From contig DASPZZ010000251.1 of the NCBI GenBank assembly GCA_035635995.1, positions 1,086 through 65,085 on the forward strand: a stretch of DNA of 64,000 bases, read 5' to 3'. Below are positions 4,640-13,038 of the stretch, piece after piece. The DNA comes from Candidatus Binatia bacterium. Lineage in GTDB: Bacteria > Methylomirabilota > Methylomirabilia > Rokubacteriales > CSP1-6. Position 1 is the stretch's first letter, and the number at the start of each line of letters is the position of its first letter. The translations under genes and the position numbers were made by a program. The notes below the pieces were generated by a model. The model was not told where the DNA came from. It saw only the letters and a list, made by a program, of their open reading frames with translations, and did no database searches.

Positions 4640-5895
4640 CGCCAGCGGTCCACCAGGTAGTGCTTCTCGCGCTCGAACGCGCCGGCCACCGCCGCGAGCG
4701 CGCCCTCGACCGCCGCCGCGTCGCGCCGGCGCGTCGCCAGCACGAAGGCCGCGGTGCGACCCAGATAGAGCGGGACGAGCGAGCGCAGCAGGTGGTCGCG
4801 GTACACGACGTTGTAGTGATGGCCCAGCGCGAAGTCGTAGACCACCCGCGCCCAGAGCTCGTCCGGGAAGTGGAACCGCTCGAAGTCGTCCGGCTCGAGG
4901 CTCAGCACGTCGCCCAGCGTCTCGGGCGCCAGGACGTGCTCCCAGATCGTGCCGAGGTCGCGCAGGCCCCGGCCGAAGGCGCCCACCATGCGCTCGACGT
5001 CGATCTGCACGGGCTCGTCCGACGGAGGCACCGGCGGGCCCTCCGCCGGCACCGGGACCCCGGCCGCCGTGTCCAGCCACAGGTCCTCGTAGTCGTCCAT
5101 CACCGCGAAGACAGCCCCCAGCGTCTGCGCGACCATCGTGGGCAGATCGGCGGTGCGCGTGCTCGACTCGACCCGCCATCGGCCGAGCCGCGCCTCGTGG
5201 ACCGCGAAGCCGTCCGCGATGACGGTGCCTTCGATCCACAGATCGGCCATGCTCCGCCCCGGCACCGGCCACCGCGGGTCGGCCATCAGGCGCTCGAGGG
5301 TTCGCGCCGAGAACGCCCGCGCGCCCGCGAGGGGCTGATGCAGCCGCCGGCCGTACAGCGCGCCGACGAGCGGGGCCAGCACGAGGTTCGTGATCGTGCC
5401 GTCGTACCGGTGGCGCGCATGCACGGGCAGCACGAGGTCGGCGCCCTGATCGAGCACGGGACGAACGAGGCGCTCGAGCCATTCGTCGCTGATCGACGTG
5501 ACGTCGGCCTCCAGCACGACGAGCGCGCGGGCACCGAGCCGGCGCGCGACCCCGATCGCCAGCCGGAGCGCGGCGCCGCGGCCGGGCACCCCGTGGAAGG
5601 GCACCGCGCCGAGCTGCGCCGCCGGCGCCTCGTGGAGCGCGCGGACCAGCGGCAGGCCGCCGTCGGCGAGCCGCTCCGCGGTGGCGTCCGACGAGCCGGC
5701 GTCGGCGTTGACCAGGACGGCCGTCATGCCGGTGAAGTGCTTCTCGAGGCCGCTGCGGACGGCATCCACCACCGCGGGCACCGTGGCGGCGTTGTTGTAG
5801 GTCAGCACGCTCACCGCCAGCTCCGCGGGCGGCAGGCCGTCGAGCTGCCGCTCGACGTCGGGTGGGAGCGCCGGGCCGGCCGCGACGGAGCTCAT
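4636..5895 (-). CDS. GT-A fold (family 2-like) glycosyltransferase with a C-terminal domain of unknown function, TreT-associated
   Basis: 419 aa from ATG 5895. The N-terminal half has the GT2-type pattern [19 protein letters not shown]...[13 protein letters not shown]...VVLEADV. The C-terminal ~190 aa have no motif I recognise. ATGA overlaps occur at both ends (5892-5895, 4636-4639). Confidence 0.75.
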
Positions 5896-7082
5896 CGGGT
5901 CAGGTGGATCACGAGCGCCAGGTCGTCCACGAGCTCGCGCGTGACCAGGAAGGAGCGCCGCACGTGCTCGCGTCCCGCGGCGCCCATGCGCGGGATCAGC
6001 TCCGGGTTGTTGAGGAGGTGGCGGATCCGGAAGGCGGCGCCTTCCACGGAGTGGACGGTGTACCCGGTCACGTTCGGGAGGATCTGCTGCGCGAGCCCGC
6101 CCGCGTAGCCGCCGACGACGGGCTTGCCCTTCCACATCGCCTCCGCCGGGCCGAGGTCGAACCCGGCGCGCACCGACTTCTGCAGCACGATCGTGGCGGC
6201 GCGCTGGAGCGCGTTGACCTGACGGTGCGCCTCGGCCGGGAGCTCGAGCACGACCACGTCGGGGTCCTCGTGGGCGACCTCCTGGAGCTGGGACAGGAGC
6301 TCGAGCCGCTCCGGCTCGCCGTCGGCCGTTCCCGCCAGCACCAGCCGCACGTCGTGGTGCTTCTTGACGAGCCGATACGCGTTCACGACCCCCAGCGGGT
6401 CGTGCGCGCGCGCGAACGGGCCGACCTGTACGAGCAAGGGCTTGTCGCGAGCGACGCCGAGCGCCCCGAGGATCTCCGCGACTTCGCGCGGCGTGAGATC
6501 GCGGTTCCGCTCCGAGAGCGGGTCGATCGACGGGGGCACGACGTACATCGGGATCCCGAGCCGGCCCTCGAACCCCGGCAGCTCGAACACCGCGGCGTCG
6601 TACTGGTCGGCGAACCGCCGAAAGAAGGCCCACGGTCCGGCCTGCGCCGACGAGCAGTCGAAGTGACACCGCCAGACCCACCGCCCGGCGGTCCGGGCGC
6701 TCACGAGGCTGGCCGGCTGGCTGTCGTGCACGAGGGTCAGGTCCGCGTCCAGGTCGAGCTTCTTCGCGTTGAGCCCGTTCATGTCGACCCAGCGCGCGAG
6801 CCCCTCCTCGCTGAGCACGCGCTCGGCGCCCTCCAGCGTGGCCTGCAGCGTGCGCGCGGTCGCGTAGTACGCGGAATCGCCGCCGGTGATCTCCCAGCGC
6901 GCGTCGATGCCCAGCTCGCTCAGGATCGGCACTTCGGCGCGCAGGGTCTCGGCCGCGCCGCCGCCGAGGCGTCCACCCGTCACGTGCAGGAACCGCCGTC
7001 CCTTCACCTGCTCGGCGAGCTTCAGGATGAAGTCCACCGCGCCCGGGCTGGCGACCCGTCGGTAGTCGTCGATCCGGCTCAT
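5892..7082 (-). CDS. treT: trehalose glycosyltransferring synthase (TreT-type, GT4)
   Basis: 396 aa from ATG 7082. It is collinear with characterised TreT enzymes: [81 protein letters not shown]. Confidence 0.88.
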
Positions 7083-7741
7083 CCGCGCGCCTCGTCGAGC
7101 GTCGCGTCGACGAGCCCGAGCAGGCGCGCGCGGATCCGCTCGAGCGTCGTCAGGTACGGATCGATCCGCTCGAACCGCTCGGCCAGCGCGGGCAGCCCGA
7201 GCGCGTCCCGCAGCCACTCGGCGAAGGCCTCGGCGCGGCGCTCGCGGGCCCGCGTCTCGACCGTGTGCAGGTAGATCGCGCTCTCGTCCACGCTCGCGAG
7301 GCCGGCGCGGAACTCGACCAGGGTCGAGGCGGCGAGCCCGAGCGGGACCTCGACGACGTGCGACTGCTGGAAGTGAAACCCGCGGTCGAACTCGACGCGG
7401 CTGTCGGCTTCGCGGCCCCGGAGATGATCCTGGACGATCGTCACCAGATGCTCGCGCAGCGCCTCGAGGGTCGGGAACGCGAACGGGTCGACGACGGCGA
7501 GGCGCTCGGCGAGGGCGCGATCGCCGATCTCGAGGGCGGCCCACCGCGCGAAGTCGTTGCCGTAGGCGGTGGTGAAGGACCGGTGCCGGAGGAAGTAGCC
7601 GAACGTGTGGAAGAAGATCGAGTCGGCCGGCACCTCCGCGAGCCGGTGCATCAGCTCGCGCTCGTCCAGCGCGTGCACGTCGAGCGTCTGGCGCAGCTCG
7701 ACGCAGCCGGAGAACGTGAACGGCTTCTCCGCCCGGCGCAT
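7079..7741 (-). CDS. conserved hypothetical protein, TreT-associated (from memory resembles the DUF5752 family; unverified)
   Basis: 220 aa from ATG 7741 (MRRAEKPFTFSGCVELRQTLDVHALDERELMHRL...). It has coding-like composition and is locked into the operon by overlaps at both ends (TGATG at 7739-7743, ATGA at 7079-7082). Confidence 0.65.
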   Translation of the reverse strand: MRRAEKPFTFSGCVELRQTLDVHALDERELMHRLAEVPADSIFFHTFGYFLRHRSFTTAYGNDFARWAALEIGDRALAERLAVVDPFAFPTLEALREHLVTIVQDHLRGREADSRVEFDRGFHFQQSHVVEVPLGLAASTLVEFRAGLASVDESAIYLHTVETRARERRAEAFAEWLRDALGLPALAERFERIDPYLTTLERIRARLLGLVDATLDEARG

Positions 7742-8148
7742 CAGTCCTCCCGCACCAGGAGCGCCACGGGGAAGCTGGCGCGGGCGTTGCGATTGCCCGA
7801 GATGCCCATGTGATTCGGCACCACGTCGATGATCACGCCCATCTGCCGGGCACGCAGCTCGGCGACGAGCGCGCGGTAGTCCGGTTCGTTTCCGAGCGCC
7901 GGATTGAAGCGGTTGTGGTCGGCGATGTCGTCGTCGTGCGATCCGGAGGAGCTCGGCTCGAAGAACGGCGACAGATAGTAGTCCGTGATGCCCAGGGTGT
8001 CGAGGTAGGGAGCGGCATCGCGCGCGTCCCTGAAGGTGAAGCTGCAGTCCAGCTGCAGACGGTAGGTCGCCACCGGCACCCGCCGGAGGGCCCGGGGCTC
8101 GCGCTCGAGGAGCTGGAAGATTTGCTCGGGAGCCATCATTGCCGTCAC
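7741..8148 (-). CDS. truncated malto-oligosyltrehalose synthase (TreY) N-terminal fragment, 135 aa
   Basis: It matches the first ~120 aa of the TreY/GH13 N-terminus: ATYRLQL..FTF.DA...PYL..LGI...YLSP, then NPALG, then IIDVVPNHMG. It stops after 135 aa, whereas full TreY is 700-950 aa. The canonical GS.HGYD is HDDD here. Confidence 0.6.
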   Translation of the reverse strand: MTAMMAPEQIFQLLEREPRALRRVPVATYRLQLDCSFTFRDARDAAPYLDTLGITDYYLSPFFEPSSSGSHDDDIADHNRFNPALGNEPDYRALVAELRARQMGVIIDVVPNHMGISGNRNARASFPVALLVRED

Positions 8149-8279
8149 TCACTCAGATAGTACGCCGTGAACCACCCGGCGACACGACCGCCCGAGCACG
8201 CCGGTCCGCGCGTGCGGCACCTCGACGCGAGCCCAGCCGTCGGCGTCCCGCTCGGTGGGGATGGGCCGGCCGTCGTCGC

Positions 8280-9047
8280 TCAGCCGACTTTGCGCACGAG
8301 CCATCTCAGCAGGCCGTGCAGCTGCGCGACGCCGTCCACTCCGTATTCCGCGGCGCCGCGGCGGGGCCCGACCCGCACCGTCACGCCATGATCTCGGAGC
8401 GCTTCGAATGCCGCCTCGTCCGTGGCGTCGTCGCCCGCGTAGAGGACGACCGTGCGCCCCGGCGGGAGAGTTTGTCGTTCGTGGCGCTCGATCATACGGA
8501 CCGCTTCCCCTTTGCTCCAGCCGACTCGCGGGATGAAATCGAACACCTTGCGGCCGCCGATGAGCGTGAGATCGGGCGCGCCGCGGGCGACGTGGGCGAC
8601 CAGCCGATCGACGTCCCCGCGGCGCGAGGCCGCCACGTGCCGATAGTGCACGCTCACGCAGAGCCGCTTGAACTCGACGTGGGCGCCCGGGATCGCGGCC
8701 GCGCCCACTCTGAGCGCCCGTCCGACCGCCGCGATGCGGATCGGGCGCACTCGCGGATGCCGGAAGCGAAGACCGCATCCCTCGATCTCGAGCCCGTGGC
8801 AGCCGCCGTAGACGACGGATGCGAGGCCGACCCGGCGCCGCACGTCCGCCAGCGCGCGGCCCGACAGGATCGCGAGCCGTGCCCGGTCGCTGCGCGCGAG
8901 TCGCGAGAGCGTCGCGCGGACCGATGGCGCCAGGACCGCCGCGTCTGGCGACGAGGCGATCGGCGCCAGGGTCCCATCGAAGTCGAGGATCGCCATCAGG
9001 CGGGCGTCGGTGCCCAGCTCCTCGTCGAGACGGCCCAGAAGGCGCAC
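8280..9047 (-). CDS. otsB: trehalose-6-phosphate phosphatase (HAD superfamily)
   Basis: HAD motif I ILDFDGTL, later YAGDDATDE. This is only the C-terminal part of the 720-aa track ORF. I chose the GTG start at 9047; an ATG at 8996 is the alternative. It lies just downstream of otsA. Confidence 0.8.
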   Translation of the reverse strand: MRLLGRLDEELGTDARLMAILDFDGTLAPIASSPDAAVLAPSVRATLSRLARSDRARLAILSGRALADVRRRVGLASVVYGGCHGLEIEGCGLRFRHPRVRPIRIAAVGRALRVGAAAIPGAHVEFKRLCVSVHYRHVAASRRGDVDRLVAHVARGAPDLTLIGGRKVFDFIPRVGWSKGEAVRMIERHERQTLPPGRTVVLYAGDDATDEAAFEALRDHGVTVRVGPRRGAAEYGVDGVAQLHGLLRWLVRKVG

Positions 9048-9055
9048 CGGGAGAC

Positions 9056-11293
9056 TCAGGACGCCTTGGCGCCCGCGGTTTCGACGGGAATCCGCGCCAG
9101 CTCGCTCAGCAAGAGCCCGGCCCACCGGTAGATGTTGTGGTCGATGACGGAGTGGCGCATCCGGATCATCCGCCCGCGCCGATCCTCGGGCGACATCTCG
9201 AGCGCCGTGCGGATCGACTCGGCCATGCCCGCGAGGTCGTAGGGGTTCACGATCAACGCGTCGAGGAGCTCGTGTGAGGCCCCGGCGAACTGGCTCAGGA
9301 TGAGCACGCCGTCCTCGTCGTCGCGCACCGAGACGAACTCCTTGGCCACGAGGTTCATGCCGTCGTGGAGCGAGGTCACCATGCAGAAGTCCGCGTGCCG
9401 GTAGTACGCCCAGATGTCGCGGTGCTCGTGGTGGGCCTTGAGGTAGAGGATGGGCCGCCAGGACTTCGTCTGGAACGCCTGGTTCAGCTCCCGGACCCGC
9501 TCCTCGACCTCGCGCTGGATCTCCTGATAGCGATCGATCGTGCCGCGGCTGGGCGCGGCGAGCTGCACGAAGACGAGACGCTCGCGGTATTCGGGGTAGG
9601 TCTCGAAGAAGAAGCGCAGCGCCCGGATCCGCTCGGGCAGGCCCTTGGTGTAGTCGATCCGCTCGACGCCGACCCCGATGAACTCGGCCGAGATGCCCAG
9701 CCGGCGCAGCAGCTCCGCGCGGGAGACGCGCGGCGGATCGTCCACGAACTCGGGCGCGACGCTGATCGGGAACGGCTTGACGGACGTCGTGTGGTCGCCA
9801 CGCGTCACCGCGAAGCGCTCCCAGTCGGTGCGCGCCTCGAGCGCCCGGTCGACCGTTTCCAGAAAGTTGTTGCAGTAGTACTGGGTGTGGAAGCCGATCA
9901 GGTCGGCGCCGAGCATGCCGAGCAGCAGCTCCCGCTGCCAGGGGCAGATCCCGAAGGCCTCGAAGTTCGGCCACGGGATGTGCCAGAAGATGGCCACGCG
10001 CGCGTCGGGACGCTCCGCTTTGATGAGCGCCGACAACGGGGCGAAGTGGTAGTCCTGGATGAGGACGAGCGGCGACTCGGCGTCCTTGATCTGGTCCAGC
10101 ACCGTGTCGGCGAACTTCTGGTTCACCTCGAGGTAGTACGACCAGTCGTCGGGCCGGAACACCGGGCGCGTGTGCACGATGTGGCAGAGCGGCCAGAGCC
10201 CCTCGTTGGAGAAGCCGGAGTAGTACCCCTGCTCCTCCTCCTTCGAGAGCCACACCCGCCGCAGCGTGTAGCGCGGATCGTCCGCCGGCACGCCGAGCCG
10301 GCCGCGCCCGTCCGCGGTCTCCCGGTCGGCGTCGCCGCTGGCGTGCGCGACCCAGACGCCCCCGCACGCGCGCATCACCGGATCCATCGCCGTCACGAGA
10401 CCGCTGGCCGGGGCCTGGGCGTGCACCTGGCCGCCCCGCCACACGTGGCTCACCGGCTCGCGGTTGGACACGACGACCAGCAGCCGGCCGTTGAGCTGCA
10501 TGTGGATGTACTGCTTGAGGCGCTCCTCGGTCCAGACGCTCTCGCCCGCCAGGCGCAGCGCGGCTTCCTGCTCAGCGGCGGCCTGGGCCCGCTGCATGCT
10601 GCGCGCCAGGCGCGAGACCTCGAGCGCGAGCGGGCCGAACATATTGGCGTCGACGACGTTGCGCGGCGGCGGGACCGGGCGGCCGCTCCTGAGCGCGCGT
10701 GTCCACTCGGAGATCTCCTCCATCGGCCGGGTGATGCTGACTTTCACCACCAGCGCCGCGATGACCGAGATGACCAGGGCCAGCACGAGGAACCGCACGG
10801 CGTTGTAGCTCCAGCGGTCCCATTCCACCCGCTCCAGGTGCGAAGCGTCCTGGAGCACGGCGATCGCGCCCGTGACCTGGTCGTCGGCGAGGAGCGGCGT
10901 GACGTAAATGTAGCGGGTGCGGTCGCCGACGATCCTGAACCCCTGGGTCGCGACGTTTCGGGAGATCGCGTCGGTCACCTCGGGCAAGGACGGCGGCAAG
11001 CCCGACGCGATGTCGGGGGTGGCGACTCGCAGCGTGGCGAAGCGGTCGTAGACGGCGATCCCGCGCTGCGTCTGCCCGAACTTCTTGACGATCCGCTCGA
11101 TGGCCGCGGGCGATTGCTTGCTGCCCCCCGCCTCGATCGCGTCGCTCAGCCCTTCGGCGACCAGCACCGCCCGCCGCTGCAGATCGCCGACGAGACGCGC
11201 CCGCTCCTCGCGGATCTGCATGTACGCGAAGACCCCGATGACCAGCATCACCGAGAGCCAGATCGCGCTGACGAGACGCAGAGTGAATTTCAT
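9056..11293 (-). CDS. otsA: trehalose-6-phosphate synthase (GT20) fused to an N-terminal two-TM sensor plus HAMP-like module
   Basis: 745 aa. From about aa 270 on it has GT20 hallmarks: [56 protein letters not shown]. Residues 1-269 comprise TM1 (aa 5-24), a ~140-aa extracytoplasmic segment, TM2 (aa 164-185), and a HAMP-like stretch ([13 protein letters not shown]...[19 protein letters not shown]). Confidence 0.9.
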
Positions 11294-11399
11294 GCGCGCT
11301 CGACCATGCGTTCGACCGTGCTCGGCATGACGATTGTCCCAGTGTACCGTATGCCCGTCGCCCCCGCAGGCAGCGCCTGGCCGGCGGCGCGCGGGCGGC

Positions 11400-12538
11400 C
11401 TACAGCCGGTGGATCGGGAAGATGGTCCGGCGGATCGCCTCGACCTGGTGCTGGGCGTACTCCTGCGCGCGCAGGCGCCGGTGGTCGGGGAGCGGCTCGG
11501 CCGGGTCCCAGAGCGAAGCGGTCAGGAACTCGTAGCGCCGCGCATCGGCGGTGAACGACGCCGGGAGCGTGGCGGGCAGCTCGACGCCGTTCAGCACGGC
11601 CCATGCGGCGGTCCACGCGCGCGCGACGTTCGGCAGATCGTAGCCGCCGCCGCCCAGGCACACGAGCTTGGGCGAGAGCTCCGCGATGCGGGCCACCGCG
11701 CGCGCGAAGCCCTGGACGTCGAGCGCCAGATGGGTCAATGGGTCGGTGCGGTGCGAGTCGATGCCGAGCTGCGCGACGACGACGTCTGGCCTGAACGCTC
11801 CGAAGAGCGGCGGGACGATCTTCTCGAACGCGGGCAGGTAGACCGACGAGTCGGTGAACGGCTCGAGGGGAAGGTTGACCGAGTAGCCGACGCCGGCACC
11901 CGTCCCCGCCTCGTCGACGAAGCCGGTGCCCGGGAAGAGATAGTCACCGCGCTCGTGGGTCGAGATCGTCAGGACGGCCGGATCGCCGTAGAACGCGTGC
12001 TGCACGCCGTCGCCGTGGTGCGCGTCGATGTCGACGTAGAGCACGCGGAGCCCTCGCTCACGGAGCCGCAGGATGGCCAGCACGGCGTCGTTGACGTAGC
12101 AGAAGCCGGATGCCCGCGAGGGCATCGCGTGGTGCAGCCCTCCGGCGAAGTGGAAGACGCGATCCGCCTGGCCGCTCAGTATGAGGTCGGCGGCCAGGAG
12201 CGAGCCGGCGGCGCAGAGGCGGGCGGCGTCCCAGAGCCCGGGGAACACGGGGTTGTCGCCCGGTCCGAGACCGAAGCGCTCGGCGAGCTTCGGCGCCTGG
12301 CCGCCGTTCGCGGCCTTGAGCGCCTGGAGGTACTCGGCCCCGTGGTAGACCGCGAGCGCGCTCTCGGGCGCGGCCTCGGGCGCGCGCACGGTGGCGCCCG
12401 GCAGCGTCGTGAGGCCGTAGGCCTGCATGAGGCGCCACGTGAGCCCGAGGCGCTCCATCCGCAGCGGATGCTGCGGCCCGTAGTCGAAGCGCGTCCACGC
12501 CTCGGAATGGATCAGCGCCGTGTTTATTGTAGCTGCGC

Positions 12539-12554
<16 letters not shown>
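11400..12554 (-). CDS. histone deacetylase-family protein (AcuC / acetoin utilisation-type deacetylase)
   Basis: 384 aa with the Zn-deacetylase core GGLHHAMPSRASGFCYVNDAV and YVDIDAHHGDGVQ. Confidence 0.88.
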
Positions 12555-12973
<419 letters not shown>

Positions 12974-13038
12974 GCGGGCATCGCCCTTCGGCGAGAGGTG
13001 CGAGAGACCGCGAAATGACCTTGACGGCCGAGCGTTCG

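Follow-up and report, generated by a model that had tools for sequence, protein, structure and literature searches.

A trehalose-6-phosphate synthase fused to a kinase-type Cache-HAMP sensor module in Rokubacteriales and other uncultured bacteria

Gene and domain organization

We analyzed a window of 64,000 nucleotides (contig DASPZZ010000251.1, positions 1,086 to 65,085) from a metagenome-assembled genome (MAG) of the Rokubacteriales, phylum Methylomirabilota. On its minus strand, at 9056–11293, one unbroken open reading frame (ORF) of 745 codons, with its stop codon at 9056–9058, joins a sensor and relay module typical of signaling kinases to a complete trehalose-6-phosphate (T6P) synthase (OtsA) in a single chain of 745 amino acids. 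The order from the N-terminus is transmembrane (TM) helix, Cache domain, TM helix, HAMP and family 20 glycosyltransferase (GT20) catalytic domain. The original prediction had been made for 10489–11293, which is the first 268 codons of this ORF, and its coordinates and residue ranges proved accurate when the ORF and its hydropathy were checked.

Kyte-Doolittle hydropathy in 19-residue windows gave exactly two hydrophobic peaks, at residues ~5–25 and ~164–188, coinciding with the TM helices that had been placed at residues 5–24 and 164–185. TM1 (11219–11281; like all parts of the gene, on the minus strand) peaks at 1.7–2.3, lies within a helix of residues 2–55 in both AlphaFold2 (AF2) models, and aligns with TM1 of histidine kinases. 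TM2 (10730–10804) reaches 2.85 and sits inside a continuous AF2 helix of residues 151–202. Lys2 and Arg6 flank the start of TM1, which would put the N-terminus inside; both termini, and with them the nucleotide-sugar-using enzyme, are thus predicted to be cytoplasmic and the Cache domain periplasmic.

The segment between the TM helices, foreseen as some 140 extracytoplasmic residues, could be refined to a single Cache/PDC domain like that of WalK (residues ~26–163, 10805–11218), recognized by family profile and by Foldseek. The AF2 model of residues 1–270 (pLDDT 85.3) consists of a long helix, an alpha/beta PDC fold, a second long helix, a loop and a further helix; the full-length model of the 745-residue protein, in which the same order of elements is seen, has pLDDT 84.5. 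The predicted Cache fold occupies the whole inter-TM segment, a long N-terminal helix being followed by an alpha/beta sheet: helices at 2–55 and 62–75, strands at 79–83, 88–91, 116–122, 125–136 and 139–149, and then the TM2 helix. Distant members of the module family (26–58% identity) were aligned, and residue invariance was scored over 53 family members. The common plan is TM1, a DLxRRAxxLAESL helix, strands with GxAxYD, YxYxxPL and GAL..DAsYI, a tryptophan (W161) at the membrane edge, and TM2. Near-invariant residues of the sensor are D37, L38, R41, G78, Y82, P133, D149, A150 and W161, so that the positions kept nearly unchanged across phyla include polar ones.

The closest known sensor is that of WalK. 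The family profile matches the extracellular domain of S. aureus WalK (5is1, 4ywz, 7dud) with E from 3e-5, for 5is1, to 4e-4, and Foldseek aligns the N-terminal model with the same three crystal structures at E 3e-7 to 7e-7 and TM-scores of 0.69–0.73, followed by the DctB, DcuS, Mlp24 and KinD sensors. The best structural match is the full-length WalK chain of an integrative WalK-YycH complex model (9a5d_A; 260 columns, E 3.8e-11, TMq 0.73). Residues 13–244 also weakly match the N-terminal half of the NCBIfam WalK histidine kinase model (E 1e-7). Of the 53 family members, 9 contain a match to Pfam sCache_3_2; the window protein itself matches no Pfam Cache model at E ≤ 10, and the lone weak match in its sensor part is to GAF_3 (E 0.17).

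TM2 is followed directly by ~50 residues that had been described as a HAMP-like stretch, a description that holds in part. Homology, landmark residues and a predicted helix-loop-helix speak for a HAMP domain at residues 189–236 (10586–10729); the domain is divergent, however, and at 13.8 bits falls below the Pfam HAMP cut-off. Pfam HAMP reaches E ≤ 0.01 in 3 of the 53 relatives (best 2e-4), and Af1503 HAMP chains align marginally to residues 188–237 of the family profile (E ~0.2). Column for column, hhalign sets the stretch on the HAMP domain of a homologous kinase (L088, described below) that scores 62.5 bits with PF00672. AF2 predicts a helix to residue 202, a loop from 203 to 216 or 219, and a helix from 217 or 220. 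The subparts can be laid out as amphipathic sequence 1 (AS1, 189–204, with P190, W197, R202 and G204), a connector (205–219), and AS2 (220–236, with P221, E225 and A236); P190, early in AS1, and G204, at its end, are nearly invariant.

Throughout the family TM2 leads into a Pro-containing helix, a variable connector, a second helix running into the motif AAxEEARLR, a short hinge, and ESxWTxERL. The AAxEEARLR helix (residues 237–253, 10535–10585; conserved A240, E243, A244, L246 and R247) continues AS2 as an output coiled coil, aligns with the start of the kinase dimerization and histidine phosphotransfer (DHp) helix, and agrees with the short coiled coil expected after the HAMP stretch. Together with the HAMP landmark residues, the linker forms the best-conserved part of the N-terminal half: residues 237–270 score 0.69 for conservation, more than any other stretch there, against 0.49 for the sensor and 0.75 for GT20.

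The last part of this linker (residues 254–270, 10484–10534) has invariant W254, T255 and L259, and also E257 and R258. Soluble GT20 genes (L093, L095, L096) in three genomes of the phylum (G001, G050, G063) begin with this helix too (W[TN]xERL...VVSN), and two of these genomes, G001 and G063, have no match to the sensor-module profile anywhere. This assigns the W254–L267 helix to the GT20 subfamily rather than to the sensor, and places the fusion joint in the 5–6-residue hinge before W254. The soluble genes may be the ancestral form that received the graft or may be secondary truncations.

Authenticity of the N-terminal half

With residues 1–270 as query, more than 100 proteins of 744–745 amino acids were found at N-terminal identities of 81–88%; some carry Candidatus Rokuibacteriota names and some the JGI label 'trehalose-6-phosphate synthase/HAMP domain-containing protein'. 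An HMMER search with the same residues against 1.84 billion cluster representatives returned 642 matches at E ≤ 1e-3, 292 of them at E ≤ 1e-10. Among the 44 listed representatives of at least 300 residues, the module runs directly into GT20 at residue ~272 in 35, and the remainder are mostly fragments.

A second copy of 745 amino acids, 93% identical, is found in the same MAG on the minus strand of a 3.3-kb contig (C59; locus L002, 485–2722). Since contamination of the MAG is 9.2%, this copy is most likely from a co-binned strain rather than a paralogue. Comparing the copies, we counted 52 synonymous and 36 non-synonymous codon changes over codons 1–270, with 56 changes at third positions and 28 and 21 at the other two, and 92 synonymous and 22 non-synonymous changes in the GT20 part. 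The N-terminal half is therefore under purifying selection, weaker than that on the enzyme half.

These comparisons bear on whether the fusion could be an artefact, produced by faulty assembly, by loss of a stop codon or by an ORF drawn too long, with the true start near residue 265, an internal start that the original prediction had itself raised. Long spurious frames are many at 70% GC, the MAG is 9% contaminated, and an ATG does lie in frame at codon 265. That ATG has no Shine-Dalgarno sequence at a usable distance, however, and Met265 is not conserved among homologues, so that an internal start is not supported. Moreover, the one-frame architecture recurs in hundreds of independent assemblies from eight phyla, N-terminal substitutions are biased by codon position, and AF2 predicts the N-terminal fold confidently. 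We rejected the artefact, which is refuted by the comparative data and whose probability we judge close to nil.

Relationship to histidine kinases

Within the phylum, the module profile also matches genomic ORFs of ~520 amino acids (E 1e-25 to 1e-31). The two that were retrieved encode TM-Cache-TM-HAMP-HisKA-HATPase kinases, with HAMP scores of 62 and 52 bits. With one of these kinases (L088, Methylomirabilota), OtsA residues 1–268 give an hhalign alignment of 266 columns (probability 99.0%, E 3.8e-18) that stops where the DHp helix with its phospho-accepting His begins, and that is where GT20 takes over. Pfam gave no HisKA or HATPase match in the 745-residue protein, which is thus not a kinase and shares the input half alone. 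Homology of this extent, ending at the DHp helix, identifies the N-terminal module as a histidine kinase input half, with GT20 standing where the core of a kinase would be. The fusion of a kinase or chemoreceptor input architecture to OtsA, as originally proposed, is in this way borne out by the kinase homology, by the sequence and fold matches to WalK, and by a complete GT20.

Some genomes encode a kinase with the homologous input near the fused gene. On contig C72 of genome G029 the kinase (L089, ~50.5–52.8 kb) is 3.8 kb upstream of the fused otsA (46.0–48.2 kb), and a similar kinase lies a few kilobases from the fused gene on contigs G135:C325 and G077:C60; the window contains none. Such pairs hint that one cue might elicit a transcriptional and an enzymatic response side by side.

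The GT20 enzyme

The catalytic domain (residues 271–745, 9059–10483) is delimited by Pfam, by alignment with a solved OtsA and by Foldseek. Pfam Glyco_transf_20 (PF00982) covers residues 273–733 with 395 bits (E 6e-118, cut-off 32.5) and nearly the whole profile (4–472 of 473), in keeping with the predicted GT20 start near residue 270. The NCBIfam OtsA equivalogs give strong matches that stay below their cut-offs (TIGR02400, 422.5 bits vs 564.85; PRK14501, 477.5 vs 634). We therefore turned to motifs and the otsB neighbor for substrate identity; the enzyme belongs to a distinct GT20 subfamily and would make T6P.

The best solved relative is OtsA of Mycolicibacterium thermoresistibile (5jij, E 1e-75), with which the window protein has in common the motifs SNR.P, GLV(T)A, Y..FSN..LWPL.H, QDY(H/Q), HIP(W/F)P, GV(E/D)R.DYTKG and DGMNLVAKE. 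The columns of these motifs are invariant in the 53 family members. Foldseek scores the GT20 part at TM-scores of 0.86–0.92 against OtsA and Tps1 structures. The T6P phosphatase gene otsB (8280–9047, minus strand; Pfam Trehalose_PPase, E 2.5e-33) starts 8 nt past the otsA stop on the same strand.

The MAG (4.09 Mb, 99% complete, 9% contaminated) has no soluble OtsA, the lone further GT20 match in the genome being the 93%-identical copy on C59. We sampled 61 genomes of the phylum: the MAG of the window and 60 others, each at least 90% complete. GT20 was present in 49 of the 61, in most as the sole copy in a frame of ~745–830 amino acids; a few lineages have a soluble GT20 of ~495 amino acids instead of, or besides, the fused form. 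Because neither this genome nor most of those sampled has any other type of OtsA, the fused form appears to be the working T6P synthase of these organisms and not an accessory paralogue.

The same facts bear on another possibility, that signals run in reverse or through a partner. GT20 might report cytoplasmic sugar-phosphate, or the Cache-TM part might bind a partner as WalK binds YycH and YycI, the protein then being mainly a regulator. The top structural match is a WalK-YycH complex model, and in some genomes, as on contig C72 of G029, paralogous kinases that carry this sensor are found a few kilobases from the fused gene. Nevertheless the catalytic motifs are fully conserved, otsB is translationally adjacent, and the fused protein, as the only GT20 in most carrier genomes, must supply T6P wherever the pathway is used. 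We consider this alternative improbable.

Distribution and origin

The original prediction had called for a survey of how widespread the fusion is. We scanned one genome per species with a 7-sequence alignment as query and confirmed the fused TM-Cache-TM-HAMP-GT20 form in the genomes of at least 105 species, which belong to eight phyla, keeping 80 carriers. The Acidobacteriota are represented by Terriglobia, Bryobacterales, Solibacteraceae and Acidiferrales; the other phyla are Elusimicrobiota, Verrucomicrobiota, Methylomirabilota, Chloroflexota (Limnocylindrales), Eremiobacterota (Baltobacteraceae), Bacteroidota and Ignavibacteriota. The module profile has matches in 179 of the 201 genomes of the window's phylum. 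GT20 directly follows the module in 78 of the 80 loci, with identities to the window protein of 56–64% for the enzyme and 27–38% for the module. An otsB homologue is found in the flanks of 46 loci, directly downstream and on the same strand in 43. Nearly all examined ORFs (71 of 73) are uninterrupted and encode 710–815 amino acids. Three loci from long-read MAGs (L015, L019 and L057) have the sensor and GT20 parts in different frames or interrupted; these are probably homopolymer errors and not true split genes.

A quick maximum-likelihood tree of GT20 put 53 fused sequences on one side of a branch (SH-aLRT 100) and seven soluble GT20s of the same phylum on the other. Among the fused sequences, those from Methylomirabilis and Limnocylindrales were nested among Acidobacteria and Elusimicrobia. 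The split and the nesting fit a single fusion event followed by lateral spread, with the soluble sample small and the root not secure. Pairwise distances of the two halves correlate (Mantel, 0 of 999), r being 0.88 for all sequences and 0.78 once the close relatives are set aside.

A candidate receptor-enzyme

Trehalose is a compatible solute, and some fused genes are preceded by an RNA that responds to salt ions. In all six Elusimicrobia loci tested, an nhaA-I Li+/Na+ riboswitch (RF03057) is located immediately before the fused otsA, its short operon or a gene ahead of it; the same holds for one of the two Verrucomicrobia loci tested and for none of the 12 tested loci of other phyla. The riboswitches are at 2915–2971 in L011, 2763–2820 in L021, 2734–2795 in L065, 2801–2855 in L073, 2828–2874 in L078, 1855–1903 in L077, and 839–892 in L037. 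Because of these two points our best guess for the cue is an osmotic or ionic one.

We propose that the fused protein is a transmembrane receptor and enzyme in one polypeptide, with T6P synthesis modulated by a cue from the periplasm or the membrane that is probably osmotic or ionic; we give this reading a probability of about 0.6. It is favored by the homology to kinase inputs, the dedication of the module to GT20, the conserved HAMP landmarks and linker, the selection on the N-terminal half, the co-variation of the two halves, the standing of the protein as sole OtsA, the salt riboswitch of some loci, and a variant with two sensors (described below). A stricter version, in which the protein is a Cache-HAMP receptor whose output is a GT-B glycosyltransferase of primary metabolism and an osmotic, ionic or desiccation cue directly sets the rate of compatible-solute synthesis, seems to us slightly better than an even bet. 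The functional idea of the original prediction, that a signal from outside or in the membrane gates the enzyme post-translationally with no two-component relay, is a reasonable inference.

The steps may be envisaged as follows. By analogy with the homologous histidine kinases the protein would be dimeric. TM2 would be moved by a cue, most likely osmotic, ionic or envelope stress, that acts on the Cache domain or within the membrane, and the four-helix bundle of the HAMP domains would convert this movement into a change in the output coiled coil. Through the 5–6-residue hinge the coiled coil could then act on the enzyme's own N-terminal helix, W254–L267, changing either how that helix packs against the GT20 N-lobe or how the two GT20 protomers are placed relative to each other. 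GT-B opening and closing would be altered, and with it the speed at which NDP-glucose and glucose-6-phosphate are turned into T6P. The pathway to trehalose would be completed by OtsB, translated from the shared mRNA. Dimerization, the direction of signaling, the nature of the cue and the choice between activation and inhibition are the parts that we infer.

The main rival to the receptor-enzyme is a module that serves as membrane tether and dimerization handle, a descendant of a kinase sensor that no longer senses. The product would be a constitutively active OtsA dimer held at the inner membrane face, for example near an exporter or near membrane needing protection. This would suit a sensor that is the least conserved region of the protein (0.49, against 0.75 for GT20), a HAMP domain that is degenerate by Pfam, and the want of an identifiable ligand-binding motif, and the transcriptional or riboswitch control of some lineages could suffice by itself. 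A simple anchor, however, needs neither a folded Cache domain of 140 residues nor a HAMP domain, and both have been kept over eight phyla at 26–38% identity with polar and landmark residues invariant and with a linker almost as conserved as the enzyme. There is also a variant, P0138 (913 amino acids, from a Logan assembly), with two tandem Cache modules before TM2-HAMP-GT20; sensors typically evolve by duplication of this kind, which would serve no purpose in a mere anchor. On balance we regard the tether as unlikely, although it carries far more weight than reverse or partner signaling.

Several observations count against the receptor-enzyme. The Pfam HAMP match (PF00672, residues 186–239; 13.8 bits, E 0.077) stays under its gathering cut-off of 25, and neither a ligand-binding motif nor a cue can be read from the sensor sequence. 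Confidence of the AF2 monomer models is lowest in the connector and linker (pLDDT 58–68 in the full-length model), and with no precedent found for a HAMP domain controlling a GT-B glycosyltransferase the coupling step is speculative. An Rfam search (E ≤ 1) over window positions 8000–13000 gave neither a riboswitch nor any other regulatory RNA ahead of the fused gene. Shared descent by itself would also make the two halves co-vary. Finally, all carriers are MAGs, with no isolate among the named matches of the genome scan and two protein searches.

Comparison with known systems

WalK (YycG) and other TM-Cache-TM-HAMP kinases, including the DcuS, CitA and DctB type of PDC sensor, have the same order of TM1, single Cache/PDC domain, TM2, HAMP and output helix. 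The fused OtsA differs from them in having GT20 instead of the phospho-accepting His of DHp, the HATPase and a cognate response regulator, and its output is a metabolite rather than phosphoryl transfer. The solved OtsA and Tps1 enzymes (E. coli 1gz5, 1uqt and 1uqu; M. thermoresistibile 5jij; Candida albicans 5hut) share its GT-B GT20 fold and catalytic motifs, and the adjacent otsB is a further common feature. They are soluble proteins of ~455–500 amino acids with no membrane or signaling parts, and their known regulation is by ions or metabolites acting on the catalytic domain and not through a receptor module; the fused protein adds 270 N-terminal residues and two TM helices.

Receptor enzymes coupled by HAMP include mycobacterial adenylyl cyclases such as Rv3645, HAMP-GGDEF/EAL proteins and the methyl-accepting chemotaxis proteins. 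Like the fused OtsA, they combine TM sensor, HAMP and effector in one chain with no phosphorelay; their outputs are second-messenger or signaling domains, whereas that of the fused OtsA is an enzyme of primary metabolism. Post-translational response to salt is known in the same enzyme family, from the cyanobacterial glucosylglycerol-phosphate synthase GgpS (a GT20) and the K+-stimulated OtsA of E. coli. These are likewise compatible-solute synthases, but their response is attributed to direct ionic effects on a soluble enzyme, with no receptor module.

A census of Cache domains in 2016 sampled only proteins with signaling outputs and stated that the domain had been identified only in such proteins (PMC4822843). 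We found no published description of an OtsA sensor fusion in the full-text literature searched, in which subscription journals are thinly covered. Thousands of these sequences are present in databases, where they bear generic enzyme names such as 'trehalose-6-phosphate synthase', sometimes with '/HAMP domain-containing protein' added. A known input module and a known enzyme are thus combined with a new class of output. If the proposal is true, the protein is the first Cache-HAMP transmembrane receptor with a GT-B glycosyltransferase of primary metabolism as output, and a new HAMP output class; if the sensor gates the enzyme, the HAMP relay can drive a metabolic glycosyltransferase besides signaling domains.

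Trehalose is a main drought and salt protectant of soil bacteria, and to our knowledge fast switching-on of its synthesis is known only for a few cultured model organisms. A receptor-enzyme would give Rokubacteria, Acidobacteriota, Elusimicrobiota and other abundant uncultured soil groups a fast and direct response to drought or salt, free of relay and independent of transcription. The fused OtsA also offers a simple sugar-phosphate readout for transmembrane signaling and for a ligand search with WalK-like Cache domains.

Neighboring trehalose genes

Farther downstream of otsB, on the same strand, follow a TreY-like stub of 135 amino acids, a DUF5752 protein, a TreT-like family 4 glycosyltransferase (GT4), a TreS-like amylase and a maltokinase-like gene. 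With otsB, these genes mark the locus as a trehalose metabolism block. The 135-residue ORF (7741–8148, minus strand) aligns with just the first ~90 positions of the profile for the alpha-amylase catalytic domain, corresponding to a TreY-like N-terminus, and ends at the start of the DUF5752 gene; it may be a remnant or a small retained protein. The next stretch (5892–7720, minus strand) encodes the DUF5752 protein (7079–7720) and then the TreT-like GT4 (within 5892–7544), and these two might provide the block with another way of making trehalose or a related glucoside.

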